From: a bacterium
GTDB lineage: Bacteria; Patescibacteriota; Minisyncoccia; UBA6257; JAUSGH01
Length of the DNA stretch: 64,000 nt
Direction of reading: 5' to 3'
NCBI GenBank assembly: GCA_030649055.1
Contig: JAUSGH010000007.1
Span: 1,854 to 65,853 of the forward strand
Part shown: positions 3,980 to 39,202 of the stretch, piece after piece
Position numbering within the stretch: position 1 is the first letter of the stretch
Layout: each line of letters starts with the position of its first letter
The notes under the pieces: model-generated
What the model was told of the DNA's origin: nothing
Seen by the model: only the letters and a program-made list of their open reading frames with translations
Database searches by the model: none
Translations under genes and position numbers: made by a program

Positions 3980-4035
3980 GGCATTTATTCAAGTATAGAG
4001 TATTGAGTATTAAGAAGACAGTATACACGCAGGGA

Positions 4036-4422: not shown

Positions 4423-4437
4423 ACTGTCTTCTCAATA

Positions 4438-5358: not shown

Positions 5359-5470
5359 CCTGAGTTCGCCAGCAGGCCGGTTGATTGATTATAAATAATA
5401 TATCCGAAGAGGTGCCCGCGGCCGACGAAGGATCTCTCGGAGATTCTTCGGCTCATCGCCTCAGAATGAC
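5354..5470. repeat. Palindromic repeat element, family B (GTCATYCTGAG ... GAAGGATCTC-GAGATTCTTCG ... TCAGAATGAC)
   Basis: Read directly. Terminal inverted repeats GTCATCCTGAG / CTCAGAATGAC. Internal palindrome GAAGGATCTCTCGGAGATTCTTCG. Related copies at 34274-34342 and 60624-60687. Confidence 0.6.
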
Positions 5471-5484
5471 ACTGTAGTCTTACT

Positions 5485-8242: not shown

Positions 8243-9199
8243 ATGTCTTGGCAGGTACCGGTGGTGCTGCGGCTCGTGGTCGCATACGTCATCGCGCAGC
8301 CGCTCATCAAGAAACTCACAAAGGAGAACGATGAGTCCCGGACGCAGAAGTTCCTGTTGCAATTCCTCGTCTGTCTGCTGCTTGCGTCCGCATTCGCCAT
8401 CTGGAGCGGCGACTGCAACTTCGACAGAAACGCCCGCGTCCTCTTCGCCGTCGGCATCGCAAATGCCTTCGGCGCGTTCTGTCAGTGGAAGTCCATCGGA
8501 TACTCGCTCTCCAAGAACGCGCTCTTCACGGTGTGGGATGACATCATCGCGATGACACTCTGTTTCACGGTGCTCCACGAAGGTAAATTCCTAAACCCGT
8601 GGATCATCGCGGGAATCGTCACGAGCTTCATCGCGATCGTCTGCTTCTTCCGGCATGGATGGCGGAAAATGCAGAAAGCGGAGACATCGGGAAGCGCAGA
8701 AAGCAACTCGTCAACTCCTCCGGCCTTCTACGCATGCGTCGCCGGCTACAGCATCATCTGGGGAGTAGCGGTGTTCCTTATGCGCAAGTTCGCGGTGGAG
8801 GGCGTGTCACTTGGAACGTTCCTCGTCGGTTGGTACGGCGGTGCGGCAACAGGGGCTATGCTCATCTTCCTCGCGGGAGTGGAGCTGAACCCCAAATGCA
8901 CGCAGCCGCTCACAAAAAAGAGCATCCAATGGACGTGTGTGCTCTCCGTCTCCATCATCGCATCACTACTGCTCCAATACTGGTCGCTGAGGAAGGCGCC
9001 GCTCGTCATCGTACAGCCGATCTTCCTTACCGGGGAAATGATCATCCCGGCGCTCATCGGCCTCTACTTCTTCAAGGAAAAGAAAGATCTGGACAAGGCC
9101 GAACGCTGGTACTTCGCAATCGGCATCACCGGCGGCATACTGCTCTTTGCGCACGACGCGCTGCAGCAACTTGCAACGCGGCTCATCGCCTGGTTCTAG
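8243..9199 (+). CDS. Polytopic membrane protein, DMT/EamA-like transporter candidate
   Basis: 318 aa, ~10 predicted TM helices arranged as two similar halves. No decisive motif. Confidence 0.35.
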   Translation: MSWQVPVVLRLVVAYVIAQPLIKKLTKENDESRTQKFLLQFLVCLLLASAFAIWSGDCNFDRNARVLFAVGIANAFGAFCQWKSIGYSLSKNALFTVWDDIIAMTLCFTVLHEGKFLNPWIIAGIVTSFIAIVCFFRHGWRKMQKAETSGSAESNSSTPPAFYACVAGYSIIWGVAVFLMRKFAVEGVSLGTFLVGWYGGAATGAMLIFLAGVELNPKCTQPLTKKSIQWTCVLSVSIIASLLLQYWSLRKAPLVIVQPIFLTGEMIIPALIGLYFFKEKKDLDKAERWYFAIGITGGILLFAHDALQQLATRLIAWF

Positions 9200-9256: not shown

Positions 9257-9931
9257 CTAATACTTCCTTATCTTCGCGATGAGATCGCGATGTTCCGGAT
9301 ACAGCGCGCGAAGCTCGCGAAGTGCGTCCTCCTGCCAGCCAGTTTCTTTCGTCACGCTTTCGGGCCTGCGGATATAAGTGAATAGCGGCTTTGGAATCCG
9401 AAAGCCCTTCCAGCGGCCGAGCGTCCGCAGCAGCAAATCATATTCGGGAAATTTCAGACCTTCACGGTAACATCCTTCCGCGGCTAACCGCTCCCTGCGA
9501 TACATCATCCCGATGGCGATGCTTGAAAATATATTTTCGGTGCTGACGACACGCGTAACGTCGCCCATGCGCTCCTCGTAATCGGAATACACGAAATCAA
9601 TCTCGGGATTGGCGTCAAGCACATCGGTTGTCTCACGCAAAAGGTCCGGCCCGAACGCATCGTCGCTATCAAGCTTGGTGACATAGGTGCCAACCGCCGC
9701 GCGGAACCCGGCATTCGCCGCGCCGACAAAACCGCGGTTCGCCTGCCGGATGACGCGGATAGCATTGCCGAACCGCGCGAGTATCTGCGGCGTCTCATCG
9801 GTGGAGCCGTCGTCAATAACGACGATCTCGTAATCGCTTTTCGGAAACTGCTGCGTGAGCGCACTCTGTAACGAGCGTTCAATAAACGCAGCGGAGTTAT
9901 ATGCCGTAATGACGATTGATGCTTTTATCAT
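9257..9931 (-). CDS. Glycosyltransferase family 2 (soluble, short)
   Basis: 224 aa. VITAYNSA...L.S...Q, DYEIVVIDDGSTD, and a DXD-type KLDSDD motif. Confidence 0.8.
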   Translation of the reverse strand: MIKASIVITAYNSAAFIERSLQSALTQQFPKSDYEIVVIDDGSTDETPQILARFGNAIRVIRQANRGFVGAANAGFRAAVGTYVTKLDSDDAFGPDLLRETTDVLDANPEIDFVYSDYEERMGDVTRVVSTENIFSSIAIGMMYRRERLAAEGCYREGLKFPEYDLLLRTLGRWKGFRIPKPLFTYIRRPESVTKETGWQEDALRELRALYPEHRDLIAKIRKY

Positions 9932-11031
9932 AAGCCCCCTTGTATATGGTCGCGCTGTAACGGCGTCCCGAACGCAATATCGCTCGCGGCTTTTTTGCCG
10001 ATGACCTTATCGTAAAACTTCGTTTCAAGACCGAACGCCGGCCGCACATCCCGGACATTTTCTTTGGTGAACAGTTCACCTTTTTTGATATCCTTCCCCG
10101 CAAACAGCGACCGGCGCCACCGTTTATTGTATTCTTCCAACTTATTATTCGGCCCATAATGCACCTCGCCAAGCATCGTAGCCGGAACCGTTTCCTTCTC
10201 GCCGCGTTTTTCTAAGTCACGAATTTTTGCAATCATTTCTTTAAGTTCGTGCGGCTCCAAAGAAAACTCAGCATCCGGCCCGCCGGTTTTTCTATCTAAA
10301 ATCAAGTGCTTCTCAACAATAGACGCGCCCGCACGCACCGCCATCACTGGGATCTCAACGCCTGCGTTGTTATCGGAAAATCCGCTGACGACCCCGAAAC
10401 GTTCGCGGATGTCCTGAATGGTTTTCAAATTCATATCTTCCCACTTCGGATTGCCGGAGTATCCCGTCACGCAATGCAGTATCGCGATATCCTTCGCGCC
10501 ATACGCGCGGAGCGTATCAATGGCAAACCGCGCCTCGTCTTCCGATGCGTAACCGATGGATATAATCACGGGCTTTCCGGTACGCGCGACTTTTTTGAGC
10601 AACACAAAATCCGTCGCCTCGTATGACGCGATTTTGAACGCCGGCACATCCATTTTGGTCAAAAAATCCACGGCGGTTTCGTCAAACGGAGTTGAAAAAA
10701 GCATGACGCCAAGTTTATCCGCAAGCTTTTTCAACTTCGGTTGCCATTCCCAAGGCGTATACGCGGTTTGATACAGCTGATATAACGTCTTACCTTTCCA
10801 CAATTCCGGATTATCTTCGCCACCGACTCTAAACCACTCTTTGTCACAGTTTAAGGTCATCGTATCCGGCGTATATGTTTGGAGTTTTACTGCGTCAACG
10901 CCCGCCGCTGCGGCGGCCTCCACCAGGCGCACGGCCTCTTCATATTTTTGATGATGATTACCCGAAAGCTCCGCAACGATAAAACACGGATTCCCCGGAC
11001 CGATTTTTTTATTGCCGATGTTCATAGTCAT
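9928..11031 (-). CDS. pseI: Nonulosonic acid synthase (pseudaminic/legionaminic/N-acetylneuraminic acid synthase family, NeuB/PseI-like) with C-terminal SAF domain
   Basis: 367 aa. IGPGNPCFIVAELSGNHH motif, TIM-barrel NeuB pattern, C-terminal SAF-like domain. 4-nt overlap with the downstream GT2. Confidence 0.85.
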   Translation of the reverse strand: MTMNIGNKKIGPGNPCFIVAELSGNHHQKYEEAVRLVEAAAAAGVDAVKLQTYTPDTMTLNCDKEWFRVGGEDNPELWKGKTLYQLYQTAYTPWEWQPKLKKLADKLGVMLFSTPFDETAVDFLTKMDVPAFKIASYEATDFVLLKKVARTGKPVIISIGYASEDEARFAIDTLRAYGAKDIAILHCVTGYSGNPKWEDMNLKTIQDIRERFGVVSGFSDNNAGVEIPVMAVRAGASIVEKHLILDRKTGGPDAEFSLEPHELKEMIAKIRDLEKRGEKETVPATMLGEVHYGPNNKLEEYNKRWRRSLFAGKDIKKGELFTKENVRDVRPAFGLETKFYDKVIGKKAASDIAFGTPLQRDHIQGGL

Positions 11032-11042
11032 GTATATAACAC

Positions 11043-11537
11043 CTACCGCGACGCGATCATTTCAATACATTCGTGGCCTTCGTAATCAACGATGCCGCGA
11101 TTTTCATATCCTGCTTTTTGAAATGTCTTCACGGATGCAAAGTTATCGGTTTTGATGTGCGCAAAAATCTTTTTGATGTTCGGAAAGTCTTTAAACAATG
11201 ATTGACCCGCGGAACGCAAAGCTTCGCTACCGATCCCCTTTCCACGAAAACGCTCCGTAACAGAAACACTGACCTCGGCGGATTCTCCGCCGTCATCAAC
11301 ATCAAATCGCACCTGACCCGCTGACGTGCCGTCCGCCTCAACGACGTACAATACGCGTTTAGGATTTCGCAAAGAGCTCTTGAACCACGCGTCGTGTGTG
11401 GACGCATCAACGCGCTCCGTATGCCAAGATTGCGCGCGAACGCTGTCCTCGTTGCGGAGTTGGAACAAAAAATCCTTGTCACGTTCTTCCGCGCGACGCA
11501 CGCGTATCGTTTGCGGCATGTTATCACTAGACCTCAT
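11043..11537 (-). CDS. GNAT family N-acetyltransferase (PseH-like candidate)
   Basis: 164 aa. GNAT acetyl-CoA binding motif RFRGKGIGSEAL, lying between the synthase and the HisF-like gene. Confidence 0.75.
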   Translation of the reverse strand: MRSSDNMPQTIRVRRAEERDKDFLFQLRNEDSVRAQSWHTERVDASTHDAWFKSSLRNPKRVLYVVEADGTSAGQVRFDVDDGGESAEVSVSVTERFRGKGIGSEALRSAGQSLFKDFPNIKKIFAHIKTDNFASVKTFQKAGYENRGIVDYEGHECIEMIASR

Positions 11538-11691
11538 GTATAATTATTTTCGTTATGCAGGAGGACCATCATTTTTTAAGGAGGAACATTGCATCCTTCT
11601 TGGTCGGGTCGTTTACTCAAACGCTTTGGCCGCGAACATGCTGCGGATATTACTTGACCACAATTCTACACCGTAACGGATTATATCCTTT

Positions 11692-12450
11692 TTAAACCAT
11701 CCTCACCGGAATGCCGGCATCCCACATCCGCTGCTTAATGCTGTTGGCGGTATGGCCGGAATAATGAAACATACTTGCCAAAGAAACCGCATCCGCATGA
11801 CCGACCAAAACCGCGTCAATAATATCCTGCACCTTCCCCGCTCCGCCAGAAGCAATGACCGGAACGGAAACGGCGCCAGCCACCGCCTTAATGAGATCTA
11901 AGTCGTAACCCTCCATGGTGCCATCCTTATCGATGGAAGTAAGCAAAATTTCTCCCGCTCCGCGACACTCCATTTCCCTTGCCCAGTGAACCGCCGATAT
12001 TCCGGAATTTTCCAGTCCACGATTTTTAAAGACAACATAATCGTTACCGACCTTTTTTGCGTCCATGGATAATACTACGCATTGACTGCCGAAAGTTCTC
12101 GCCGCCAAAGCGACGAATTCCGGGTTTTGCAACGCCTCGCTGTTCACGGCTATTTTATCCGCCCCTATTTTCAATAACATTCCGATGTCATCCAAGGAAT
12201 GAATGCCACCGCCGATAGTCAGCGGCATAAAACATTCCTTCGCGATTCCCTGAACAATTTCAAAAGCCGGTGGGCGGTGTTCTTCGGTAGCCTTTAAATC
12301 AATAAAAATTAATTCATCCACGTTCCGGCTGTTATAAACTCTCGCCATCTGTATGGGATTGCCAAGATTCCTTAATCCATCGAATTTGATTGTTTTGACA
12401 AGATTAATCCCATTAAACAGCATGCATGGGATAACTCTGGTTTTAAGCAT
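11692..12450 (-). CDS. Imidazole glycerol phosphate synthase cyclase-subunit homolog (HisF-like, WbuZ/PseA-partner type)
   Basis: 252 aa. HisF TIM-barrel motifs (RVIPC.....G..VK, IASGGAG). 8-nt overlap with the HisH-like gene. Confidence 0.85.
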   Translation of the reverse strand: MLKTRVIPCMLFNGINLVKTIKFDGLRNLGNPIQMARVYNSRNVDELIFIDLKATEEHRPPAFEIVQGIAKECFMPLTIGGGIHSLDDIGMLLKIGADKIAVNSEALQNPEFVALAARTFGSQCVVLSMDAKKVGNDYVVFKNRGLENSGISAVHWAREMECRGAGEILLTSIDKDGTMEGYDLDLIKAVAGAVSVPVIASGGAGKVQDIIDAVLVGHADAVSLASMFHYSGHTANSIKQRMWDAGIPVRMV

Positions 12451-13081
12451 ACTCAGTAATTTGTTTTAAAAAATTTTCTAAAAACTTCCATCCGCTATGT
12501 TGGCTTTTCTCCGGATGAAACTGCGCGGCGAAAATATTATCGCGTTGAATGCCGGCGGCAAACCTTTCTCCGTAATCGCAGGTTGCGGAAATAATCGCGA
12601 TGTCGTCGGGGCGGACACAATAACTGTGGACAAAATAAAAATTTTTATCCTCAATACCGTCAAAAAGACGGCTGTTCCCATTAACCGGTTCAACATTGTC
12701 CCAGCCGACATGAGGTAGCCGCAAACTTCCGGCATCCAGCTTAACGGTTTTGCCTTTAATAAAACCCAACCCGCGCGTTTCTCCGAACTCATAACCGACA
12801 TCTGTCAGTAGCTGCATGCCAAGACAAATGCCTAAAAACGGAACTTTCTCCTCCAGCACTCTTTGAGCTAAAATGTCCGCCAAACCGAAACGCTTAAGAT
12901 TCTCCATTCCGTCCCCAAACGCGCCTACTCCGGGAAGCACTAAGAAATCCGCGCGGGAAATTTCATCTTGTTTGCGGGAAACGACAACCGATGCGCCGAT
13001 TTTTTCGAATGTTTTCGCAACCGAAGCAACATTGCCCATCTCATAATCAATGATGATGCCGTTAAGCACTTTCATTGTCAT
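12443..13081 (-). CDS. Glutamine amidotransferase, HisH-like (WbuY-type)
   Basis: 212 aa. Class I GATase motifs: LPGVGAFG, GICLGMQLL, FHPEKS. Confidence 0.85.
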   Translation of the reverse strand: MTMKVLNGIIIDYEMGNVASVAKTFEKIGASVVVSRKQDEISRADFLVLPGVGAFGDGMENLKRFGLADILAQRVLEEKVPFLGICLGMQLLTDVGYEFGETRGLGFIKGKTVKLDAGSLRLPHVGWDNVEPVNGNSRLFDGIEDKNFYFVHSYCVRPDDIAIISATCDYGERFAAGIQRDNIFAAQFHPEKSQHSGWKFLENFLKQITEYA

Positions 13082-14222
13082 AATTTACTTTAACTAAATT
13101 CCCGGCAATATCCCGTAAAAACTTTCCGTGAGAATCCTTTTTGAAAATCTGCGGATTGGTAAAAGAATCCATAACGGCATCAATCTCCTCCTTGCTCATG
13201 CCGGAATATTCCGAAAATTCTTTAACTCCGTAATACGGATACTTGCCGTCATACTTTCGGACCAACTCCATTCCCTCTTCCCTGGTAATCCGGCCATTCC
13301 TAATGTCCAAGCAGGCATGATCCGTAGCCCTGCAAAAACCGTATTTGAGAAATTTCAAATAATCGTGGACGCCAACCGTACCCTCATCCAGATTTTCATA
13401 ATTGGTGTATGTTCCCTCAACCGGTCCGTCTTCCTTAACGGCAAATCCGTATCGCTTGACGATTTCATTTTGCTTTCTTGCGTCCCACTTAAAGTAATAG
13501 CCCAGGAATAGCCCGGTCGCGCCGACCCGTTTTAACTCATTGTCGCTCGGGTAAGAATACGCGAGCAGATCTTTTTTGGTAATCCCGCCGACGCCAATCA
13601 TGTCATCCACTCTGTTTCCCAAAAGTCCGCCGAATTCCTCAAGCCAGCGCCGGTCAAGATAATTTTTCTCGGTGGCGGACGCCGGTCCCCCATATTCCAA
13701 CTGGGAATTTTCCCCCCAAATAATCAGAGGGACATTATACTGGACAGCGGTCCGGACCGGAATCGTAAAAATACCGATGTGATTGGGCCATTCGTTGTCG
13801 CCGACCCGTTTAAAGGCCTCGATGGCCATTTTCTTGTATACATCCGGATTTTTTTTGAAATAAACGAAGTCGCAGCCGAATGTCCGGATATTCTCCCGAT
13901 TTTTTCTTCCCAATTCCGTAATATGGGTCTGCTCGAAAGAAACCAGCAGTGGATTCAGACCGTACACTTTTTTCATCACATAAACCTGGTAATGGCTATC
14001 CTTGCCGCCACTGACCGGAATAATGCAATCGTAATTGCTGCCGTCTTTGGAGCGGTATGTTTCAATAATGGCTTCAAATTCTTTTTTCCTCGCTTCCCAG
14101 TCAATGCCGGTTTCTTTCTTTACAGCCGACAGGCAGGCATCGCAAACTCCGGCCTGATCAAAAAATAAATCCGGCTTTGTATTGGGCATGACGCATTTTT
14201 TGCAGTAGGTGATTTTAGTCAT
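13062..14222 (-). CDS. N-acetyl sugar amidotransferase (PP-loop ATP pyrophosphatase; WbuX/PseA/LegX family)
   Basis: 386 aa. N-terminal Cys cluster CKKCVMPNTKPD...CDAC and PP-loop SGGKDS. Forms a trio with the HisH/HisF-like genes. Confidence 0.8.
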   Translation of the reverse strand: MTKITYCKKCVMPNTKPDLFFDQAGVCDACLSAVKKETGIDWEARKKEFEAIIETYRSKDGSNYDCIIPVSGGKDSHYQVYVMKKVYGLNPLLVSFEQTHITELGRKNRENIRTFGCDFVYFKKNPDVYKKMAIEAFKRVGDNEWPNHIGIFTIPVRTAVQYNVPLIIWGENSQLEYGGPASATEKNYLDRRWLEEFGGLLGNRVDDMIGVGGITKKDLLAYSYPSDNELKRVGATGLFLGYYFKWDARKQNEIVKRYGFAVKEDGPVEGTYTNYENLDEGTVGVHDYLKFLKYGFCRATDHACLDIRNGRITREEGMELVRKYDGKYPYYGVKEFSEYSGMSKEEIDAVMDSFTNPQIFKKDSHGKFLRDIAGNLVKVNYDNESA

Positions 14223-14279
14223 ACGATTTTTGCATGCCTCTCTAGTAACCAGATACTCACGCCTACGTTCACGACGAGC

Positions 14280-14981
14280 TTATATTTTCTTCAATAAAAA
14301 CATCTCGTCCACATTATTACCATTCACGTATTTATATTTTTCTCTTTTTACCAATCTGAGATTTGGAAACAAATCCAGATACATTTGGACGAAATCTCTT
14401 TTCCAAAGCCGGTCCTTATGGCCGCGGTAATCAATCGCCTGAGGTTTTTCCGAAAAATACTCCATCCCCCAGATATATTTCTTGCTGGTCCGATAAATTT
14501 CCCGCATGGCTTTTTTGAGATCCTTCGGAGCAATATGAATCAAAACTCCGGAGGTGAATACCAAATCAAAATAATCATCCTTAAAAGGAATATCAAAAGC
14601 GCTTCCCTGGATAATATTGATTCCTTTCGTGTGCGTTTGAGCTATCGCAACGGCGACGTTAAAAATTTCCACTCCGTAAAGATTTTGATGGCCTTGTGAT
14701 TGCAAAAGTGCCAATTGGTTTCCGACGCTGCTCCCAACCTCCAGGATATTATTCAACTTCAATGTACCCAAAAACCGGGTATTCATTACCGATCTGGACA
14801 GCCCGTATTCTTTCATATAAAGGTCGTCTAATTCCCTGTTGGTGAACAGGTTCCTTTCTATGTACCCTTTGTCAAAATCCGATTGCCAAAATTTTTCCTG
14901 GTCAGTGAATTTTCTATTTTTCATATAATACGATGATAACCAACAATTGCCCGCAATGCAAAATTCTACCGCATCACGCAT
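14280..14981 (-). CDS. Class I SAM-dependent methyltransferase (possibly nonulosonic-acid-associated methylase)
   Basis: 233 aa. Motif I LEVGSSVGNQL and a DLVFTSGVLIHI motif. Confidence 0.6.
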   Translation of the reverse strand: MRDAVEFCIAGNCWLSSYYMKNRKFTDQEKFWQSDFDKGYIERNLFTNRELDDLYMKEYGLSRSVMNTRFLGTLKLNNILEVGSSVGNQLALLQSQGHQNLYGVEIFNVAVAIAQTHTKGINIIQGSAFDIPFKDDYFDLVFTSGVLIHIAPKDLKKAMREIYRTSKKYIWGMEYFSEKPQAIDYRGHKDRLWKRDFVQMYLDLFPNLRLVKREKYKYVNGNNVDEMFLLKKI

Positions 14982-15042
14982 CGGACTTTTTTATAACGAT
15001 TTCATATATGACGGCGCCATACTCAACGCGATAGTCCTCTTT

Positions 15043-15609
15043 TTACTTACTATCAATCTCAGCTTCGAGTACTGACCAACAATCAACGTCCCGATAGCCG
15101 CGCGGCATCCGGAACGCGTCGCGGCGACGCCCTTCAAAAACCCAGTTTAGTTTACGCATGATGGCGTTAAAGACCGGGTGCGCCGATTCAGCCCATAACC
15201 GATGAAGCTTTAAAACTTTAAATGCCAGCTTGGTCGCGAGAATAATTGCTTCAGTCGCATAGCCCTTGCCCCAGACGCTCCGATCGCCAATCATAATCGA
15301 AAGCTCGGCGCTCTTGTTTTCCTTGTCGATAGCGATAATAAAGATATTCCCAATATGTTTCTCCCCATCTTTAATGAACACGGCAAAATGGCGATCGGGC
15401 GACTGTCGCGTTGACGCGATAAAATCCCTTACGTCCTTAAGCGAAAATTTTTTTCCTCGCCGTCGGGTGTAAAGCTGAACCTTGGCGTCGTTTAACCAGT
15501 GAACATACCTCAGTGTCGCCTCAGCCGGTGATAATTCCCTTAACCCGAGCCGCTCACTGGCAATAAGATACGTTGAATGCTTTTTCATTTTTTGGACGAC
15601 GCCTCGCAA
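15043..15609 (-). CDS. GNAT family N-acetyltransferase (RimL-like)
   Basis: 188 aa. GNAT core VWGKGYATEA. Confidence 0.7.
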   Translation of the reverse strand: MRGVVQKMKKHSTYLIASERLGLRELSPAEATLRYVHWLNDAKVQLYTRRRGKKFSLKDVRDFIASTRQSPDRHFAVFIKDGEKHIGNIFIIAIDKENKSAELSIMIGDRSVWGKGYATEAIILATKLAFKVLKLHRLWAESAHPVFNAIMRKLNWVFEGRRRDAFRMPRGYRDVDCWSVLEAEIDSK

Positions 15610-15635
15610 GAAGACAAGGCAGTAATGAAGATTAC

Positions 15636-16313
15636 TTATTTCCGCAGAATCGCTTCCGCGCGATCAAAATCTTCAGGGTAATCAATATCAACATTTTCAT
15701 CATTGTCCATGATGAGCGGCAGTAACTTATCGGCGACAACCTGCCGCATCAGGATATTGGTGCGCGTCAAATATATCGCCCCGTTTTCTTTGAACAGCGG
15801 CTTTGACATTTGGCGGTTTTCCAACTTTCGCGGATACAGACGCTCGTAGCCACCCTCAACCTCAACCCAAAAATGTCCCTTATCGTATGTGCCGCTGACA
15901 ACCGAGTCGGCATCGTTTGCCAGCGCCAGATCCACGGCTTGCTGTATCCGCTCGGTTTTCAATAAGGGCGAAGTCGGATACACCAAGAGGACGTAATCCG
16001 GACTATATCCTTCCTTACGCTTCAGCTCTTTCACCGCGTGCTGCAACACCGGCAGCGTCGCGACCTCATCGGTCGCAAGTTCCATCGGACGGATAAAGGG
16101 TACCTCGGCACCGAACTTTTTTGCCACCTCGGCAATTTCCTTGTCTTCGGTGCTCACAATGACCCGGTCAATGCCTTTCACTTTTTTTACGGAGGCGATG
16201 ATGTAGCTGATCATCGGTTTTCCGGCGAGCAGCTTGATATTTTTTCTCGGCACCCCTTTTGAACCTCCCCGGGCCGGAATAACAACAATTATTTTCTTTT
16301 TATTTTTTTCCAT
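15636..16313 (-). CDS. pseF: Acylneuraminate cytidylyltransferase family (CMP-nonulosonic acid synthetase, NeuA/PseF-like)
   Basis: 225 aa. IIVVIPARGGSKGVPRKN motif and the rest of the CMP-NeuAc synthetase fold pattern. Confidence 0.85.
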   Translation of the reverse strand: MEKNKKKIIVVIPARGGSKGVPRKNIKLLAGKPMISYIIASVKKVKGIDRVIVSTEDKEIAEVAKKFGAEVPFIRPMELATDEVATLPVLQHAVKELKRKEGYSPDYVLLVYPTSPLLKTERIQQAVDLALANDADSVVSGTYDKGHFWVEVEGGYERLYPRKLENRQMSKPLFKENGAIYLTRTNILMRQVVADKLLPLIMDNDENVDIDYPEDFDRAEAILRK

Positions 16314-17344
16314 ATTTTAGTGATAAAGGTAATAATATTTTGAGTTGCGTTCATATTCGCATACTGTTTCTTCAGCACCGAGAGCGTACGCGCCGGCGGC
16401 GACCACTGTTTCCGGCGATAATACTCATCTAAGTAATCATATAAATCTTTTTTATGATAGATTGCCCGGCTCAATCCTCTTCGGTTACTCACCAACACAT
16501 CATCCTTCGGATGAAGTCCCGGCTGATAGCTGATAACCGGCTTACCGGCAATGCTTGCTTCAAGCAGCACAATAGAATTTGTTCCGACAATCAGCGTTGC
16601 TTCGCTAAGTAATCGGTAAAGATCGGCATCCTTCACCACGCGAACCGGAACTTCGGGATAACGGGCGATAAGTTCATCGTACTTCCCTTCCTCTTCCTTC
16701 GGATGCAACTTCACGATAACAGGTCCGTAATCCTTCCATTGTGCGTATCCGAGCACGTCTTCCAGCACCTGAAATTCGTTGAAGGGATACGGATTGGGAT
16801 GCAACGAAGAAAACGGTGTTGAAATATATAACAAATTTTTCGGGTGTTTTGTTTTTGTACGGATTTTTTTTATGCTTGCCTCAAGAGCCGGGTTTCCTGT
16901 AATCGCGATTGCCCCGGCGGGAACGCCGAGTTCCAATAATTCGCGCTTCATCACGCGGTCAATCACGCAAATGTCATCCGGAAGATAACGGTGGCGTTTA
17001 TTTATTTTTTCTCCGAAGCGGTCGTCGTAACCGCTCCAATAATCAATCACGGAAACGGTTCGTATGCCGCGCGCCCGGGCAATAAGCGTGAACCGTTTTT
17101 CGATACTCAGTCCGGCGCTTGCCCCCAGCACCATGATGTCCGGCTTCCACGCAACAACAACATCCGCAAGCTGCGCGTCCGAATAAGAAGTGCAGTCCGT
17201 AGCACGAATCTTCTCCCGCGCGAACATCGGAACGGCGTATTTCGCTCCAAGCACCTTAACCGAAGCTTTTGCAGATAACTTTTTGATCACCGGCGCGAGC
17301 GCGTTCGCGCTGCCCGGATCCTGCGCCGCGAAAAGAACTCTCAT
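16289..17344 (-). CDS. GT-B fold protein, PseG-like UDP-sugar hydrolase / MurG-like candidate
   Basis: 351 aa. N-terminal MRVLFAAQDPGSANALAPV resembles the PseG/MurG Rossmann start. Position in the operon between the CMP-transferase and the aminotransferase. No decisive motif. Confidence 0.4.
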   Translation of the reverse strand: MRVLFAAQDPGSANALAPVIKKLSAKASVKVLGAKYAVPMFAREKIRATDCTSYSDAQLADVVVAWKPDIMVLGASAGLSIEKRFTLIARARGIRTVSVIDYWSGYDDRFGEKINKRHRYLPDDICVIDRVMKRELLELGVPAGAIAITGNPALEASIKKIRTKTKHPKNLLYISTPFSSLHPNPYPFNEFQVLEDVLGYAQWKDYGPVIVKLHPKEEEGKYDELIARYPEVPVRVVKDADLYRLLSEATLIVGTNSIVLLEASIAGKPVISYQPGLHPKDDVLVSNRRGLSRAIYHKKDLYDYLDEYYRRKQWSPPARTLSVLKKQYANMNATQNIITFITKIWKKIKRK

Positions 17345-17347
17345 ATA

Positions 17348-18691
17348 TTACTTATTTCCATTAAACTCCTGCCGGTTGGCGTAAACTTTTTTAACGGCGC
17401 TAACAAAAAGATCTATATGTTTTTTTGTCCTCGGATATTGACACACCGTCGTGAACGTAAATTCTTTTTCATACATCCGTTCAACCACGGGACAAATGCC
17501 CTTCGTATAATCAACGCGTCCCCCGTAATGGCTTCCCACAAACGGAAAGTTAGTGTTATTAAATACCTTTTGCTCCTGAAATACGCGCAGGAGATATAAA
17601 GGTTTGGTATATCCGAGGGACATGGGGAACCCTTCGGCGGTCATCGCCCGCGCAAAGTTATCACGAGAAATCTCCAGTTTCGATTCGTCAATTTTCATCG
17701 GGTACACATAAAACACGTGGCTCGAACCCTTGGGAACATACGGCAATACAAGGCCGGGAATGACGGACAACTGTTTTGTAAGATATGTTACCAACTCCAG
17801 CCGCTTCTTGTTCAAAAAATCCAGTTTGCGAAGCTGCTCATACGCGATCGCCGCCTCAAGTTCGGTCATGCGATAATTGCTTCCGATGATAGGACCGTCG
17901 GCGTAACCCGGATCCTGGTCAACATATGCTTCCCCGTGATTCCGCGCCAACTGCGCACGGAACGCGTAATGCGCGTTGTTCGTTACGAGAACTCCGCCCT
18001 CGCCGCTCTGGATAGTTTTATGCACATTGAAACTAAAGACGCCGATGTCGCCGATGGTTCCGGTGAACTTTCCTTTATACGTTGCGCCGGGTGACTGCGC
18101 GTTATCTTCAATAATTTTAATATTGAACTCTTTGGCAATCTTCAGCAGCTCGTCGAAATCAGATGATCCTCCGAAAATATTCACCGCCATAATCGCCTTC
18201 GTGCGCGGGGTAATACATTTTCTGACCGATGCCGGATCAATGCAAAATGTTTTCTCATCAATATCGGCGAATACCGGCACCGCTCCGTTCATCAAAATCG
18301 CGGTGGCCGAGGCACACATGGAGTACGGCGACACGATCACCTCATCACCGGGACCGATACTAAGCGCCGCAACCGCCGCATGTAGCGCAGTCGTCGCCGA
18401 GTTAAATGAAACCGCGTGCTTCACGCCGAATTTTTTACAAAACAGCGCTTCAAGTTTTTTGACCTGTTTGCCGCCCAAAAAATACGGGCCATTCGCGCCC
18501 ACAAAATCCGACAGCGGTCCGTTTTTTATTACTTGCGTCGCCGCGCGCAATTCTTCCTTGCCGATGTTGTACACCGGCGGAAATGGTTTCTTTAATATCG
18601 GCTTCCCTCCAAATAATGCGAGTTTTTTCATATGATTTAGCGAAATTATGTGATTCCCCAGAATCATCCTGGGGATAGGCGCAACGTCCAT
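17348..18691 (-). CDS. DegT/DnrJ/EryC1/StrS-family PLP-dependent sugar aminotransferase (second copy; WbpE-like candidate)
   Basis: 447 aa. GKEEL.A...V...G.LS, IEDNAQS, and FSFNVHKTIQSGEGGVL with the Schiff-base lysine. Confidence 0.85.
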   Translation of the reverse strand: MDVAPIPRMILGNHIISLNHMKKLALFGGKPILKKPFPPVYNIGKEELRAATQVIKNGPLSDFVGANGPYFLGGKQVKKLEALFCKKFGVKHAVSFNSATTALHAAVAALSIGPGDEVIVSPYSMCASATAILMNGAVPVFADIDEKTFCIDPASVRKCITPRTKAIMAVNIFGGSSDFDELLKIAKEFNIKIIEDNAQSPGATYKGKFTGTIGDIGVFSFNVHKTIQSGEGGVLVTNNAHYAFRAQLARNHGEAYVDQDPGYADGPIIGSNYRMTELEAAIAYEQLRKLDFLNKKRLELVTYLTKQLSVIPGLVLPYVPKGSSHVFYVYPMKIDESKLEISRDNFARAMTAEGFPMSLGYTKPLYLLRVFQEQKVFNNTNFPFVGSHYGGRVDYTKGICPVVERMYEKEFTFTTVCQYPRTKKHIDLFVSAVKKVYANRQEFNGNK

Positions 18692-18707
18692 TGAGCGCCG
18701 ACGCTTT

Positions 18708-19745
18708 TTATTTTTTCACATCCCCGCCCGGTTGAGGCAACTTCTTCACCTTCCCCCGAAACGACAAGCGGACATTCACCCCATTATGCTCAGAAGAATA
18801 CAACAATGCATGCATAATTTCGAGTGAAGCTAACGCCGTCTTCCCCGACGAACGCGGTTCGCGATTTTTCCCGACGCTACCCAAGAGATCCTGAAGCGCG
18901 GAATCCATATAATTGCGCGGCAAATCTTTCGAAATCGGATTCCGGGCATCATTGGCGATAAACTGCGACCCGAGCACCGGATCTTTTTGTTTCAGATAAT
19001 ACCGGTAGTCATATACGCCGAACGGCTTGTTGATGGTATCAAGCCGCGCGTCGGATCCGAAGATGTTCATCTCCAGAATGCTGTACTGTTTCGTCGCGAG
19101 TGGCATGATGGTGGCGAACACCGAACCGAATCGCAGTCGGCCGATTAATCCGTTCTTCGCATTCGTCGCCGACACTTCATCGCATGGTCCGAACAAAAAT
19201 ACTAAGAGATCCAGGAGATGCGAGCCAGTCGTTACAATACCGCCGCTATAATAACAGCCAACCGCCTGCACATCCCCTACCAGTTCCGCCATGTGTTCTT
19301 TAATAAACTCATAGAAAGGATCATAGCGGCGAATAAAATTCACGAGCAGTTTGACGCCGCGCCGTTCGCACGCAGCCGCCATTTTTTTCGCTTCGGTTAA
19401 AGAAATCGCCAGCGGTTTCTCGCACCAAATTCCGCGGACCGAAGCATGCTTCAACACCTCCCGCAAAATCGGGAAGTGGGTTTGGTCCGGAGTGCAGATA
19501 CTGACAAGCTCCGGCTTTTCTTGCCGAAACATTTCGCGATAATCGGAGTACGGTCGGCCGCGGAACAAGGCACTTGCCGATTGCAAGGCGCGCTGATCGG
19601 AATCGGCGATTGCGACAAGATTGATTTCCTGGTTAGCCAGGTATGCTTCCATATGCGTTGTATGGAACGGAAGTTGATATCCGCTGAACTTCACGCCGAT
19701 ATTGCCGGCTCCGATAATTGCGGCGCGTTTTTTTGTTTGTGCCAT
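18708..19745 (-). CDS. Gfo/Idh/MocA-family NAD(P)-dependent oxidoreductase (WbpB-like sugar 3-dehydrogenase candidate)
   Basis: Rossmann motif AIIGAGNIGVKF and EKPLA motif. The annotated start is the internal Met (MAQTKKRAAIIGAG) at 19745, which abuts the upstream gene. The longer ORF to 19985 would overlap PseC by 236 nt. Confidence 0.8.
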   Translation of the reverse strand: MAQTKKRAAIIGAGNIGVKFSGYQLPFHTTHMEAYLANQEINLVAIADSDQRALQSASALFRGRPYSDYREMFRQEKPELVSICTPDQTHFPILREVLKHASVRGIWCEKPLAISLTEAKKMAAACERRGVKLLVNFIRRYDPFYEFIKEHMAELVGDVQAVGCYYSGGIVTTGSHLLDLLVFLFGPCDEVSATNAKNGLIGRLRFGSVFATIMPLATKQYSILEMNIFGSDARLDTINKPFGVYDYRYYLKQKDPVLGSQFIANDARNPISKDLPRNYMDSALQDLLGSVGKNREPRSSGKTALASLEIMHALLYSSEHNGVNVRLSFRGKVKKLPQPGGDVKK

Positions 19746-19749
19746 AAAA

Positions 19750-20883
19750 TTAAGAGAGAGCGGTCCGCAATGTTTTAATAACATGCGCTTGATCAGCTTT
19801 TGAAAGGCCGGGGAAGATTGGGATGGAAATTTCCGAAGCGTAAAATGCTTCGGCATTAGGGCAACTACCCTTTGTATATCCCAACTTCCGGTAATACGGC
19901 TGGAGGTACACCGGAATATAATGCACCTGGCACCAAATACCGGCAGCGCGCAGCTGCGCGAAAACTTCTGCGCGTTTCTTCGCAAAAGCTCCGCGGAGCC
20001 GCACCGGGTATAAATGCCAACTGGACGTCACGCCCTTCTCCTCGGTCGGCAATTGCAAAACCTTTTGAAGGCCACCGAGTTCCTTCGCATAACGCGCGGC
20101 AACGGACCGCCGCAGCGCCATAAATCGGTCAATTTTTTTGAGCTGGCTCAACCCGAGCGCCGACTGAATATCGGTCAAGCGATAATTGAAACCGAGCTGC
20201 TGCATTTCATAGTACCACGCGCCCTCCGACTTTCTTTTGAGCAACGCCGCGTCTTTGGTGATGCCGTGCGTGCGGAATACCCGCAACGCATCCGCATACT
20301 GCTTGTTGTTGGTAAGCACCGCGCCGCCCTCGCCGGTAGTAATAGACTTCACCGGATGAAAACTGAAGGCCGTCATGTCCGCAATGCTACCGATGCGTTT
20401 CCCGCGGAGCGTTGCGCCAAGCGAATGGCAGGCATCCTCAACCAACACTACGCCGTGGCGTTTCGCTATTTTTTTGAACGCGGGAAGATTAGCAGGGTGT
20501 CCCCCGTAGTCAACAACGGAAATCAATTTTGTTTTCTTGTTGATTTTTTTCGCCGCCGCAATGGGATCAAGATTGCCTCGATCGTCAACGTCGGCAAAGA
20601 TGGGCTTTGCGCCAAGATACAACCCGGCGTTCGCGGTTGCAACGAAGGTGAGCGGACTCGTAATGAACTCATCCCCGCGCCCAAGTCCGGCCGCGAAGTA
20701 CGCGCCGTGCAGCGCCGCCGTGCCGTTTGAAAAAACAACGGCGTACTTCACGCCGCAGTATTTCGCCAATGCCTCCTCAAATGCTTCAACCTCCGGTCCT
20801 TGCGTCAAATACGGCGACCGGAGCACCTTCACGACCGCTCGGATATCGTCTTCATCAATGAATTGATGGCCATAGGGAATCAT
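19750..20883 (-). CDS. pseC: UDP-4-amino-4,6-dideoxy-N-acetyl-beta-L-altrosamine transaminase-like (PseC)
   Basis: 377 aa. IPYGHQ.I...D, FSFHPVKSITTGEGG, SALGLSQLKK, QVHYIPVYLQPYY closely follow the PseC pattern. Confidence 0.85.
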   Translation of the reverse strand: MIPYGHQFIDEDDIRAVVKVLRSPYLTQGPEVEAFEEALAKYCGVKYAVVFSNGTAALHGAYFAAGLGRGDEFITSPLTFVATANAGLYLGAKPIFADVDDRGNLDPIAAAKKINKKTKLISVVDYGGHPANLPAFKKIAKRHGVVLVEDACHSLGATLRGKRIGSIADMTAFSFHPVKSITTGEGGAVLTNNKQYADALRVFRTHGITKDAALLKRKSEGAWYYEMQQLGFNYRLTDIQSALGLSQLKKIDRFMALRRSVAARYAKELGGLQKVLQLPTEEKGVTSSWHLYPVRLRGAFAKKRAEVFAQLRAAGIWCQVHYIPVYLQPYYRKLGYTKGSCPNAEAFYASEISIPIFPGLSKADQAHVIKTLRTALS

Positions 20884-20899
20884 AGGGCTAGAACTAAAA

Positions 20900-21907
20900 C
20901 TAGACTTCAGTTATCCCGCTCATCAGAGCCTGTAATTCTTTTTTTGTGATCCACTTCGTATTGTGATCGCTCGTCAGCAAAAATTTGTTCTTTATTGCTT
21001 TTCCCGCGCGCGCGTACTTTGCGTAGGCCTCCCGGGGCAAAAATTCGGACTCCGGAATCACAACATAATAATCGCCGAAATCAACGGTATGCGCCGCTTC
21101 CTCCGCGGTTAAAAGCACTTCATGAATCTTTTCGCCCGGCCGCATGCCGATGATTTTTTTCTCCGCGTCCGGAGCAATGGCATTCACAAGATCAACAAGC
21201 TTCATGCTGGGAATTTTAGGGATGAAAATCTCTCCGCCCTCCATCTGCCGAAGCGCGAACATGACGAGCGCCGCTGCCTGTTCCAGATTAATCCAAAACC
21301 GCGTCATATTCGGGTCAGTGATATGGACTGTTTTCCCGCGGTTCTGCAACAGCGTTTCAACAATGCTGCCGCGGCTCCCCAGCACATTGCCATAACGCAC
21401 CGCCGCAAATTTTGTTTTATTACCGGACAATGCATTGCCGGCAACAAAAAGTTTTTCCGCGCACAATTTTGTTGAACCATACAAATTCGCCGGATACGCC
21501 GCTTTATCAGTTGAAATAAGTAGCGCGTGGGAGACACCGCAATCAATCGCCGCCTCAACCACGTTCTGGGATCCCAACACGTTTGTCTTCACCGCTTCCA
21601 TCGGGTTGTACTCTAACGCCGGCACCTGCTTTAACGCGGCGGCATGCACTACCACATCAACCCCGGAAAATGCGCGCTGCAAACGCGGAAGGTCGCGTAC
21701 ATCGCCCAAAAAAAACCGGAGCCGGTCATCGTGAAGCTCACGGCTCATGTGGTATTGCTTCAACTCATCGCGGCTGAACACAATAACTTTCTTCGTCGCG
21801 GTGTTGGCAAGCAAATACTTCACGAAACTCTTACCGAACGAGCCGGCGCCGCCGGTCACAAGAACTGTTTTTCCCTTCAAAATGTCGGTATTTTTCGTTG
21901 ATGCCAT
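20900..21907 (-). CDS. pseB: UDP-N-acetylglucosamine 4,6-dehydratase (inverting), PseB/FlaA1-like
   Basis: GKTVLVTGGAGSFG, STDKA, YGSTK, and the PseB-type C-terminal region. Start set at the internal Met (MASTKNT). The alternative start at 21967 adds 20 aa. Confidence 0.85.
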   Translation of the reverse strand: MASTKNTDILKGKTVLVTGGAGSFGKSFVKYLLANTATKKVIVFSRDELKQYHMSRELHDDRLRFFLGDVRDLPRLQRAFSGVDVVVHAAALKQVPALEYNPMEAVKTNVLGSQNVVEAAIDCGVSHALLISTDKAAYPANLYGSTKLCAEKLFVAGNALSGNKTKFAAVRYGNVLGSRGSIVETLLQNRGKTVHITDPNMTRFWINLEQAAALVMFALRQMEGGEIFIPKIPSMKLVDLVNAIAPDAEKKIIGMRPGEKIHEVLLTAEEAAHTVDFGDYYVVIPESEFLPREAYAKYARAGKAIKNKFLLTSDHNTKWITKKELQALMSGITEV

Positions 21908-21976
21908 AGGTTCTGAATATAACCGCCAATTGACTAGAATAGTAACCCATCGCGCCTGAAAAAGCAATGCGGCGCG

Positions 21977-22280: not shown

Positions 22281-23807
22281 ATGAAAGGCTGTTTATTACT
22301 ACAACGACGGTTTGCAACCATCAGCCACGCGATTGCGCTTGCGCTGAAAGAAAAATACGGCATAACCGAATTCTGCGGCTACGTTTGCGTCCGCTCGGGT
22401 TTTGATTTCCTGAAATCCCAAAAAGACATCAACTACGGAACCTTACTGCTCGATGACGAACTTCAAAAAGATTACGTCAAAGAAAAACTTGATCCCGAGT
22501 ACCTCCACCACCTGGAAAAAGAATATGGCATCCCCAACCTGTGGCCGTACATTGCCTGCGACCGCGTCATCATGTTTAAACAACTGTTGCGCGAGTATCC
22601 GTACAACACGCCGATGTATACCCACGAAGAAATGTTGCGCATGCTCCAGGTGAAGGCGCGCGCGATCATTCATATGCTTGAGGAGGAAAAACCCGATTTC
22701 CTTTTCGCGAGCGTCGTCGGTTCCATGGGAGGAATGCTCCTCTATCACATCGCCAAAAAGAAAAACATCAAGGTTATTATTGCCGATATCGCCCGCATCG
22801 GCGAACTGTTTACGGTAAGCGATCATTACGCATATCACACATGGACTGAACAAATTTTTCAAGAACTAAAACGCACGGAACGACACAGCCCCCGTGAACA
22901 CGACGCGCAAACCTTCCTGAAAAATTTCCGGAAAGAGCCGGCGCCGTTCTTCGGAAAACTTTACGAAAAAGACCAGTTAGTTGACCGCCGTAGGAAGCTC
23001 CAATTTTTGAAACCTACTCATATATTCCGATCGCTCGCGTGGGTTTTACAGCTCACGATCGGCTATCTCAAAAATCCTCATCGCGACGACTATGAGGAAA
23101 TCAAACCCTGGCATTACATAATTGATCGGCTCAAAAACAAAGCGCGCCTACTCCGCGGCTTCCGCGATCTCTACAGTAATCCGGAACCGAATGAAGATTA
23201 TGCCTTTTTCCCGTTACAATATGAACCGGAAATTTCTATGCTGCTCTATGCTCCATTTTTTTCCGACCAATCGTACGTGATCCGACAAATCGCCCGCTCG
23301 CTTCCCGTCACATATAAACTTTATGTTAAGGACCATCCTTCAATGGTCGGATTCCGGACGAGAAGTTATTACAAGGAACTGCTGAAAATACCGAATGTCC
23401 GACTCATCAACCCTGTTATCAAAAGTTTCCCGTTAATCCAAAATTCAAAAATTGTGACAACAATTACGGGCAGTGCCGGCTGGGAAGCGGTATTGCTCAA
23501 AAAACCCGTCATCACGTTCGGTGATGTGTTTTACAACGCGTTAAGTACCGTGAAACACTGTCGGACTATTGACGAACTTCCTTATTTGATTAAAGAACAA
23601 CTCGAGTCAACGCGTTATAACGAACAAGAGCTGATCAATTACATTGCCGCCACGATGGAAGTTTCCGTTGAGGTGTCACTGCTCCGGCTTTGGGAACGGG
23701 AAATAGGAGATTTTGAAAAAGTGAAAAAAGGCATGGAGCCTGCGGCGGACTTGATTGCAAGAAGACTCGGCGTGAAGGCCGTACCGAGTGTTACCCCAAG
23801 AAATTAA
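22281..23807 (+). CDS. Capsule-polysaccharide-biosynthesis-family protein (KpsC/KpsS-like fold) candidate glycosyltransferase
   Basis: 508 aa. The C-terminal third (YVKDHPSMVGF...IVTTITGSAGWEAVLLKKPVITFGDVFY) resembles capsule-synthesis / CDP-glycerol-transferase-like retaining transferases. Sits next to the nonulosonic acid operon. Confidence 0.4.
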   Translation: MKGCLLLQRRFATISHAIALALKEKYGITEFCGYVCVRSGFDFLKSQKDINYGTLLLDDELQKDYVKEKLDPEYLHHLEKEYGIPNLWPYIACDRVIMFKQLLREYPYNTPMYTHEEMLRMLQVKARAIIHMLEEEKPDFLFASVVGSMGGMLLYHIAKKKNIKVIIADIARIGELFTVSDHYAYHTWTEQIFQELKRTERHSPREHDAQTFLKNFRKEPAPFFGKLYEKDQLVDRRRKLQFLKPTHIFRSLAWVLQLTIGYLKNPHRDDYEEIKPWHYIIDRLKNKARLLRGFRDLYSNPEPNEDYAFFPLQYEPEISMLLYAPFFSDQSYVIRQIARSLPVTYKLYVKDHPSMVGFRTRSYYKELLKIPNVRLINPVIKSFPLIQNSKIVTTITGSAGWEAVLLKKPVITFGDVFYNALSTVKHCRTIDELPYLIKEQLESTRYNEQELINYIAATMEVSVEVSLLRLWEREIGDFEKVKKGMEPAADLIARRLGVKAVPSVTPRN

Positions 23808-30115: not shown

Positions 30116-30133
30116 AATATTTTCTATATGTAG

Positions 30134-30205
30134 CCCTTCGATAAACTCAGGGACTATTATTTCCTGAGCAAAGGTCCGATGAACATCGGACCGCAATCGA
30201 AGGAA
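30134..30205. repeat. Palindromic element, family C (CCCTTCGATAAACTCAGGG ... TCCTGAG-N27-TCGAAGGA)
   Basis: Read directly, between two minus-strand membrane protein genes. Confidence 0.6.
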
Positions 30206-39193: not shown

Positions 39194-39202
39194 AACGCTA
39201 CC

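Follow-up and report, generated by a model that had tools for sequence, protein, structure and literature searches.

The contig JAUSGH010000007.1 (assembly GCA_030649055.1), of which 64,000 nucleotides (nt) were analysed here as one window, belongs to a Parcubacteria-like bacterium of the candidate phyla radiation (CPR) and carries, at window positions 9257-21967, a tight operon of 14 co-directional open reading frames (ORFs) on the minus strand. We propose by analogy, and with a confidence just short of even, that this operon directs the synthesis of a triamino derivative of pseudaminic acid (Pse): an activated nonulosonate would be oxidised, transaminated and N-acylated, and an unnamed protein, termed X in the following, would replace the hydrolase PseG. 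The intergenic gaps of the operon do not exceed 154 nt, four gene pairs overlap, and the family matches (E = 1e-59 to 1e-152) are far past chance. Families were assigned by the curated equivalog cut-offs of NCBIfam and the gathering scores of Pfam, and the canonical Pse cluster of a Klebsiella plasmid (locus L006) served as reference. An earlier description of the same DNA, made without any database search (the sequence-only reading), had seen here a complete Pse-type operon, extended by an acetamidino-forming trio and a pair of genes for a 2,3-diamino sugar; all the genes it named are found where it placed them, on the minus strand and in one operon.

Judged by the model scores, the core of this operon is of the pseudaminic and not of the legionaminic (Leg) or sialic type, because PseB, PseC and PseI pass their equivalog cut-offs while the LegB and NeuB models fall short. 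The inverting UDP-GlcNAc 4,6-dehydratase PseB (20900..21907; the ORF opens with a TTG at 21967, but translation likely begins with the ATG at 21907) reaches 442.4 bits with TIGR03589 (cut-off 407.75) and 57 bits with the LegB model (cut-off 475), the C4 aminotransferase PseC (19750..20883) 506.4 bits with TIGR03588 (cut-off 423.5), and the synthase PseI (9928..11031), a NeuB-family protein with a SAF domain, 415.9 bits with TIGR03586 (cut-off 340.25) and 255.4 bits with the NeuB model (cut-off 399.65). The assignment of synthase and dehydratase to the Pse, Leg or Neu side, which the sequence-only reading had named as a check, therefore comes out as Pse by NCBIfam scoring. Among solved structures, PseC ranks Helicobacter pylori PseC first (2fn6, 241 bits), followed by the perosamine synthase Per (205 bits) and KdnA (164 bits), and the identities to the Klebsiella proteins amount to 50% (PseB), 44% (PseC) and 47% (PseI). 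The PseH-like N-acetyltransferase GNAT2 (11043..11537) stays below the cut-off of TIGR03585 (45.4 bits, cut-off 93.1) and aligns with the PseH half of the Klebsiella PseG-PseH fusion at 30% identity (tblastn, E = 2e-11). The putative CMP-nonulosonate cytidylyltransferase (15636..16313), whose gene overlaps that of X by 25 nt, belongs to the CTP_transf_3 family (PF02348, E = 1e-25); its best model is PseF (TIGR03584), in line with the CMP-transferase proposed before, but with 164.7 bits it misses the PseF cut-off of 205.7, and the 47% identity to the Klebsiella PseF holds over the N-terminal 128 amino acids (aa) only.

The operon differs from the canonical PseB-PseC-PseH-PseG-PseI-PseF pathway (Campylobacter and Helicobacter; Klebsiella L006), with which it shares the PseB, PseC and PseI orthologues, alongside a GNAT resembling PseH and a cytidylyltransferase resembling PseF, in three respects: PseG is absent, the unrelated GT-B protein X adjoins the cytidylyltransferase, and pseC is separated from the tailoring genes by five additional ones. 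The PseG model TIGR03590 has no match among the 14 proteins of the operon, and tblastn of the Klebsiella PseG-PseH fusion on the 64-kb window recovered the PseH half only and no PseG. The sole Epimerase_2 protein of the window (35166-36248) is the non-hydrolysing WecB (TIGR00236, 316 bits, cut-off 210; NeuC model, 66 bits, cut-off 236), so that no recognised enzyme releasing the hexose from UDP is encoded. The Pse operon can thus not be called complete, and the gene at 16289-17344, taken for a PseG-like hydrolase in the sequence-only reading, is the one encoding X, which has no TIGR03590 match and whose family profile aligns with the Klebsiella PseG at an hhalign probability of 1.4%.

Protein X (16289..17344; protein record Q7R85_01835 of the metagenome-assembled genome) matches no Pfam family above the gathering score, gave no match in a sequence search of the PDB, and shows no match to TIGR00236 or TIGR03568; with Epimerase_2 (PF02350) it reaches 23 bits, below the gathering score of 30.6. 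Its fold is more telling. In the alignment-based AlphaFold2 (AF2) model (mean predicted local confidence, pLDDT, 92), all of the top 40 Foldseek matches belong to the UDP-GlcNAc 2-epimerase family (WecB, NeuC and WbpI-like proteins; E ~1e-13, TM score ~0.7), and hhalign of the X family against the WecB of the window gives 81% probability over 257 columns, pairing ITGNP with VTGN and LHPK with MHPR. X, which is predicted to be soluble, hence displays the two-domain GT-B fold of the 2-epimerase superfamily together with the TGN motif and the His within 'HP'. The near-invariant residues of X itself are G11, S76, D101, W103, R109, D129, G150, H214-P215 and S272. On the basis of this model, we assign X to a large and unnamed GT-B family, predicted to be closest in fold to the UDP-GlcNAc 2-epimerases. 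The number of 50%-identity clusters from an exhaustive profile search is 2826 at E<=1e-30 and rises to 7153 at E<=1e-10, and no informative name is attached to any of them; in a profile word-index search, the named homologues were 'hypothetical protein' entries and a single 'CDP-glycerol glycerophosphotransferase family' label. X occurs fused to CTP_transf_3 (P0093, 602 aa, in four assemblies; L024:10001-11809) and to a phosphatase of the HAD family (P0176, 577 aa). As the canonical hydrolase is missing both in this Pse operon and in a Leg-type cluster described below, X probably replaces PseG and LegG as nucleotide-sugar hydrolase.

Three of the additional genes point to a further amination. 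The first encodes an NAD(P)-dependent dehydrogenase of the Gfo/Idh/MocA family, here called Gfo (18708..19745, with the likely start at 19745; 345 aa; PF01408, E = 4e-23), whose EKP motif (E109, K110, P111) and H176 show no exchange among 35 homologues and whose AF2 model has a pLDDT of 94. The second encodes a pyridoxal phosphate (PLP)-dependent aminotransferase of the DegT family, long DegT or DegTL (17348..18631, the likely start being 18631 in an ORF extending to 18691; 427 aa; PF01041, E = 7e-91), which scores 203.7 bits against perosamine synthase, 203.2 against KdnA, the Kdo8N transaminase with which it shares ~40% identity, 190 against 8gyh over the full length, 137 against WbpE and 129 against PseC. 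The third is GNAT1 (15043..15609; Acetyltransf_3, PF13302, E = 2e-18), with homologues inside the same gene set in L001, L003, L005, L007, L013, L015, L016, L021, L024 and L026. In other organisms, Gfo is found fused to a formyltransferase domain (Formyl_trans_N; P0041, 520 aa, and also in L010), and the long DegT to a methyltransferase (780 aa, Azospirillum locus L022). With two aminotransferases and two GNATs, the window fits the scheme proposed below; Pfam bears out the families which the sequence-only reading had given for these proteins (Gfo/Idh/MocA, a second DegT, two GNATs), whereas its attribution of the dehydrogenase and the DegT protein to a separate WbpB/WbpE-like 2,3-diamino route is weak, the pair being part of a module beside a NeuB-family synthase.

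This module, consisting of Gfo, the long DegT, X, a CTP_transf_3 cytidylyltransferase and an Acetyltransf_3 GNAT, is portable. Neighbourhoods of X homologues were drawn from metagenomes, species-representative genomes and a plasmid collection, giving about 20 divergent loci (numbered with the prefix L), 18 of which were informative. The long DegT directly adjoins X in 15 of the 18, a cytidylyltransferase gene is adjacent or fused in 12, and a NeuB-family synthase lies at a distance of at most 10 kb in 16. Gene orders are permuted: Gfo-DegT-X-CTP in the present operon, X-CTP-Gfo-DegT in L005 and L027, CTP-Gfo-X in L022, CTP-Gfo-DegT in L020 and PseB-Gfo-DegTL-X-PseC in L011 and L016. Conservation across the loci is highest for the long DegT (44-76% identity), followed by X (25-67%) and Gfo (24-63%). 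Hosts comprise Parcubacteria, Saccharibacteria, Kaiserbacteria and Peribacteria, metagenome-assembled genomes of Gammaproteobacteria, Limisphaerales and Geobacter, the archaeon Methanoperedens and plasmid p6 of Azospirillum argentinense MTCC4035. In the Geobacter locus (L026), the core is legionaminic: LegB (543 bits, cut-off 475) and LegC (549 bits, cut-off 420) are accompanied by an acetyltransferase of the NeuD type, a NeuB synthase, a nucleotidyltransferase resembling PtmE and a cytidylyltransferase resembling LegF; Gfo, the long DegT, X, a GNAT and WbuX continue this cluster, in which no NeuC/LegG was found, and Pse-type and Leg-type cores therefore both seem to be served by the module. 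We tentatively consider the module as a route to 8-amino (triamino) nonulosonic acids on Pse or Leg cores in bacteria and archaea, with X founding a hydrolase family (at least 2800 clusters of 50% identity) which replaces PseG, LegG or NeuC, although we hold this generalisation to be more doubtful than not. A description of the Gfo, long DegT, X, cytidylyltransferase and GNAT module was not found in the searchable literature.

The Azospirillum locus (L022; plasmid p6, NZ_CP032327, 11420-23653) carries the module without PseB and PseC, together with a short NeuB, a glycosyltransferase of family 2 (GT2) fused to CTP_transf_3, two further cytidylyltransferases, Gfo, AsnB and GalE. Its X homologue is annotated as 'hypothetical protein' (WP_137119091; hhalign probability 99.2%). 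A suspected fusion of DegT with X in this locus was discarded, since the C-terminal half turned out to be a methyltransferase and X has a gene of its own. With its cultured host, this locus is a tractable experimental system.

Downstream of the module genes in the operon lie those which most likely tailor the product. The amidotransferase WbuX (WbuX/PseA type, 13062..14222; TIGR03573, 389.9 bits, cut-off 203.2) and its HisH-like glutaminase partner of the WbuY type (12443..13081; TIGR01855, 229.1 bits, cut-off 105.4, with a match to PF00117) pass their cut-offs, and the HisF-like partner with the cyclase fold (WbuZ/AglZ type, 11692..12450) falls marginally under that of WbuZ (TIGR03572, 294.8 bits, cut-off 299.7; AglZ/HisF2, 260.9 bits). 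The genes for WbuX and HisH overlap by 20 nt and those for HisH and HisF by 8 nt, an arrangement in keeping with the WbuXYZ, PseA, PtmG and AglXYZ systems; Campylobacter PseA is able to function without HisH and HisF partners. Next to the trio, a methyltransferase (14280..14981) dependent on S-adenosylmethionine passes the cut-off of the pseudaminic-acid-associated family TIGR03587 (200.4 bits, cut-off 112.05). Both the acetamidino trio and the methyltransferase of the sequence-only reading are thereby confirmed at the family level, and the heavily N-modified nonulosonic acid it predicted is a sound expectation. Participation of the trio in a separate FucNAm pathway, which that reading had considered as a possible objection, was rejected for lack of an FnlA-type enzyme (PseB reaches 261.6 bits with the FnlA model, cut-off 730). 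The G+C content of the methylase gene (0.39) and of the trio (0.455-0.47) is below that of the window (0.512), and the same four genes recur beside the module in L001, L014, L015, L021 and L026, which suggests a separately acquired tailoring block acting on the same sugar. Pse core, acetamidino trio and methylase are ordinary members of known families.

Taken together with known systems, the following route can be envisaged. PseB, PseC and GNAT2 would form UDP-2,4-diacetamido-2,4,6-trideoxy-L-altrose, from which X, in place of PseG, would release the free hexose, as it would do in the LegG slot of the Leg-type relative; PseI would condense the hexose with phosphoenolpyruvate, and the cytidylyltransferase would activate the product to the CMP-sugar. 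Gfo may then oxidise a free hydroxyl of the (CMP-)nonulosonate, most likely that at C8, as proposed for ElaA; the long DegT may transaminate the resulting ketone in the manner of KdnA in the Kdo8N route, and GNAT1 may acylate the new amine, a step for which the formyltransferase fused to Gfo could stand in other loci. WbuX with HisH and HisF would convert one acetamido group into an acetamidino group, and the Pse-associated methylase would add a methyl group. The predicted product is a CMP-activated derivative of 5,7,8-triamino-3,5,7,8,9-pentadeoxy-nonulosonic acid in the Pse configuration. Two glycosyltransferases would pass it on to the assembly of the surface glycan. One is a GT-B protein of 508 aa, a candidate nonulosonate transferase encoded divergently on the plus strand (22281..23807; Capsule_synth, PF05159, 1e-12; BFO_1060 family, 3e-8), which has homologues in L001 (78%), L003, L014, L015, L016 and L020. 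The other is the product of the last operon gene, which had not been listed in the sequence-only reading: a small soluble GT2 (9257..9931; 224 aa; PF00535, 2e-30) without transmembrane segments, with homologues beside NeuB in L001, L005, L018 and L027 and another, the one fused to CTP_transf_3, in the Azospirillum locus L022.

In its logic, the module resembles two described systems and belongs to neither of them. In Acinetobacter baumannii KL49, the Gfo/Idh/MocA protein ElaA was proposed to oxidise CMP-Leg5,7Ac2 at C8, with ElaB being the CTP-transferase and the short-chain dehydrogenase/reductase (SDR) ElaC reducing the ketone to the 8-epimer (PMC13656337), and Leg clusters contain PtmF, an 'oxidoreductase' of 326 aa, beside LegF and PtmA (PMC4481668). 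The present module shares with these a Gfo dehydrogenase near a CTP-transferase in a nonulosonate cluster (adjacent or at most two genes away here and in 12 loci) as well as the Lys of the EKP motif and the His, and in the Geobacter locus Gfo also comes after PtmE-like and LegF-like genes. Unlike them, it has no SDR reductase of the ElaC/PtmA type but a PLP aminotransferase and a GNAT instead, so that amination rather than 8-epimerisation is predicted. The KdnB/KdnA route to Kdo8N of Shewanella likewise combines a dehydrogenase with a DegT aminotransferase on an ulosonic acid, and among the solved structures KdnA ranks first for the long DegT, jointly with perosamine synthase, which scores equally well. 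There, the dehydrogenase KdnB is an iron alcohol dehydrogenase and the substrate position a primary C8 alcohol; here, the dehydrogenase is of the Gfo/Idh/MocA family and would act on a secondary alcohol of a 9-deoxy nonulosonate. The class of product predicted exists in nature: the O-antigen of Tenacibaculum maritimum contains an 8-amino-3,5,7,8,9-pentadeoxy-manno-nonulosonic acid (PMC3210612), like Pse a nonulosonate and with a third amino group at C8, but known as a chemical structure only; biosynthetic genes for its 8-amino group were not found described in the literature. A second locus of T. maritimum encodes a dehydratase, an aminotransferase, an oxidoreductase and an acetyltransferase (PMC9796276).

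Several points weigh against the proposed route. The position of the amination (C8, C4 or a carbon of the hexose) is assigned by analogy only, and Gfo is likened to ElaA and PtmF by family, size and gene context as given in descriptions. By Foldseek and NCBIfam, Gfo is nearest to WlbA and to a UDP-GlcNAc 3-dehydrogenase, a resemblance which is weak and non-discriminating. Some loci hold a second cytidylyltransferase, and the module may therefore activate a different sugar there. PseG could be encoded elsewhere in the genome. Further points concern X, which is without the catalytic D95 and the PEExNR motif of the epimerases. Among 16 members of its family, weak matches are to Epimerase_2 in eight, to polysialyltransferase (PolyST) in seven and to Glyphos_transf in two, and X also weakly matches TIGR04396 and the BFO_1060 family, that is, the side of the CMP/CDP-dependent GT-B transferases, the BFO_1060 family including the Pse/Leg transferase of Tannerella forsythia with its HP motif. 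Moreover, two loci encode a true hydrolase besides X, namely PseG in L020 (218.7 bits, cut-off 153.55) and NeuC in L015 (399.9 bits, cut-off 235.9), for which reason X may not be the hydrolase.

These weak transferase matches and the coexistence with true hydrolases, together with the essentially invariant H214-P215, speak for X being an inverting GT-B transferase which uses the CMP-sugar, similar to sialyltransferases with their HP motif, while hydrolysis is left to an unlinked PseG or another enzyme. A fusion with the cytidylyltransferase would then couple the successive steps of activation and transfer, and GT-B::HAD fusions are classical for glycoside-phosphate synthases. We nevertheless judge this role of X to be rather unlikely. 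Both hhalign and the fold of the protein as a whole point to the epimerase/NeuC family, X lies within the biosynthetic core in the gene order PseB-Gfo-DegTL-X-PseC of L011 and L016, other candidates for the transferase are present (the Capsule_synth/BFO_1060-like protein of 508 aa here, LIC12162/Glyphos_transf proteins in L026 and L027), and most loci would be left without the indispensable hydrolase.

A separate 2,3-diamino sugar, as favoured by the sequence-only reading for Gfo and the second DegT, is less likely than the amination of a nonulosonate, and we consider it improbable that Gfo, the long DegT, GNAT1 and X form, beside an ordinary di-N-acylated Pse, a UDP-2,3-diacetamido-2,3-dideoxy sugar of the ManNAc3NAc type in the manner of wlbABCD or WbpB, WbpE, WbpD and WbpI. 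The steps would be the C3 oxidation of UDP-GlcNAc(A), transamination at C3, N-acetylation and 2-epimerisation, and the four enzyme classes found (Gfo, DegT, acetyltransferase and a protein with the 2-epimerase fold, the WbpI-like 8syd being among the structural matches of X) are indeed those of the WlbA-D route to UDP-ManNAc3NAcA. The WbuX trio might then form a 3-acetamidino group, as WbpG and AglXYZ do; WbuX-type enzymes amidate 3-NAc groups in Pseudomonas aeruginosa O5 and Methanococcus maripaludis. The best full-length NCBIfam match of Gfo is the archaeal UDP-GlcNAc 3-dehydrogenase (NF040723), yet with 71.7 bits it is far short of the cut-off of 450, and while WlbA (3q2k) occupies Foldseek ranks 2-4, GenD2 also ranks high (TM_0414 follows at rank 31), so that the structural similarity of Gfo to WlbA is no better than that to unrelated Gfo enzymes. 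The long DegT scores lower against WbpE than against KdnA and Per, X stays below the Epimerase_2 gathering score and is devoid of the catalytic residues mentioned above, and family scans of 43 ORFs of the window showed no UDP-GlcNAc 6-dehydrogenase. The module is constantly linked to a NeuB synthase and to a cytidylyltransferase, the latter even in fused form and needless for a pathway confined to UDP-sugars, and both the Pse core here and the Leg core in Geobacter would remain without any hydrolase. Nor could such a sugar be the precursor of the nonulosonate. The C6 ring oxygen of the nonulosonate stems from the hydroxyl at C3 of the hexose, and since a C3 amine is thus incompatible with pyranose closure, a C3-aminated hexose feeding PseI was rejected on chemical grounds.

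Very unlikely, finally, is a function of the long DegT as an alternative C4 aminotransferase (similar to Bacillus Pam or perosamine synthase), with Gfo supplying precursors or acting as ketoreductase and a second stereoisomer of a diamino nonulosonate, not a triamino sugar, as the outcome: the C4 aminotransferase perosamine synthase is its top match in the PDB, Bacillus genes of the pseC/Pam type align over the full length with 34% identity, and it is the sole aminotransferase seen in L004 and L017, which show no PseC, but the window and most loci hold PseC (or LegC) in addition to the long DegT and two N-acyltransferases, a dehydrogenase dedicated to the pathway and found fused to a formyltransferase speaks for a new keto/amino position, and the RmlD-like 4-ketoreductase of L004 would use up the 4-keto group.

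Two structural or genomic look-alikes of Gfo were set aside during the analysis: a match on the Escherichia coli plasmid pECOED, the gene context of which is unrelated, and the PDB entry 8w9s, whose identification as ElaA is disfavoured by its composition and its low score.

Nonulosonic acids decorate flagella, S-layers, capsules and lipopolysaccharides and govern immune recognition and phage adsorption, and the chemistry by which they are tailored is only partly mapped. Should the triamino route proposed here prove true, genes would be assigned to the orphan 8-amino nonulosonates, chemically known from a fish pathogen, and oxidation at C8 of the ElaA type would be seen to have been recruited for amination besides epimerisation. 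A function would further be given to a very large unnamed family which makes many Pse and Leg clusters look 'incomplete'. Should no more than the ordinary part stand, the result still matters for automated calls which score the completeness of Pse pathways by PseG. It also illustrates that the genome-reduced CPR bacteria invest in elaborate surface sugars; a literature search on CPR together with nonulosonic or pseudaminic acid retrieved no relevant work.

Some further features of the module loci deserve mention. In Geobacter (L026:14304-16052) and Methanoperedens (L027:15339-17252), proteins of the LIC12162 family or with a Glyphos_transf match are encoded downstream of the module and are likely nonulosonate transferases. 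Methyltransferases of the radical-SAM/B12 type recur in several of the loci. In L004 (3892-6856) and L017, from Parcubacteria and Saccharibacteria, PseB is accompanied by the RmlD-like 4-ketoreductase in the absence of PseC, and the NeuB protein fits the NeuB model better than that of PseI, which suggests a 5-amino-9-deoxy (fusaminic-like) backbone to which the module would add the sole further amine.

The operon itself is embedded in a surface-glycan island which takes up nearly all of the window between 900 and 60000. The island includes a protein with Wzy_C and TPR domains (900-3203), a flippase of the MOP family (6642-8123), four PMT_2 proteins of the GT-C fold (25462-26778, 28607-30196, 41921-43399 and 46476-48122), a GT87 (55928-57304), a fusion of a methyltransferase with a GT2 (27178-28593), several GT2 and GT4 proteins, AsnB (44604-46463) and the WecB at 35166-36248 discussed above. 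Genes for an RfbH-like 3-dehydrase (395.8 bits, cut-off 423), an enzyme dependent on thiamine diphosphate and an aldolase of the HMGL/DmpG type (38159-41038 and 48142-49419) hint at a route to a 3,6-dideoxy or branched-chain sugar in the same island. At its edge, on the minus strand (3245-6594), adjacent genes encode a protein of 244 aa similar to the C-terminal part of citrate synthase, a protein similar to the alpha subunit of succinyl-CoA ligase, and one with ATP-grasp_2 and Citrate_bind domains; the three resemble a citryl-CoA synthetase/lyase or a split ATP-citrate lyase, which is unexpected in a CPR-like genome, and they may supply acetyl-CoA.

General scans added little. Rfam gave no match in the whole window, the promoter/terminator scan did not exceed the shuffled expectation, and an exact-sequence look-up of PseI matched no record. 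The closest relative for one gene is a protein of Candidatus Harrisonbacteria with 85% identity. Convergent to the operon, on the plus strand (8243-9199), lies an ORF of 318 aa which matches no family and contains seven or more hydrophobic segments, and a homologue of which is found in the Saccharibacteria-like locus L003 (393-1301; 28% identity, E = 7e-35).

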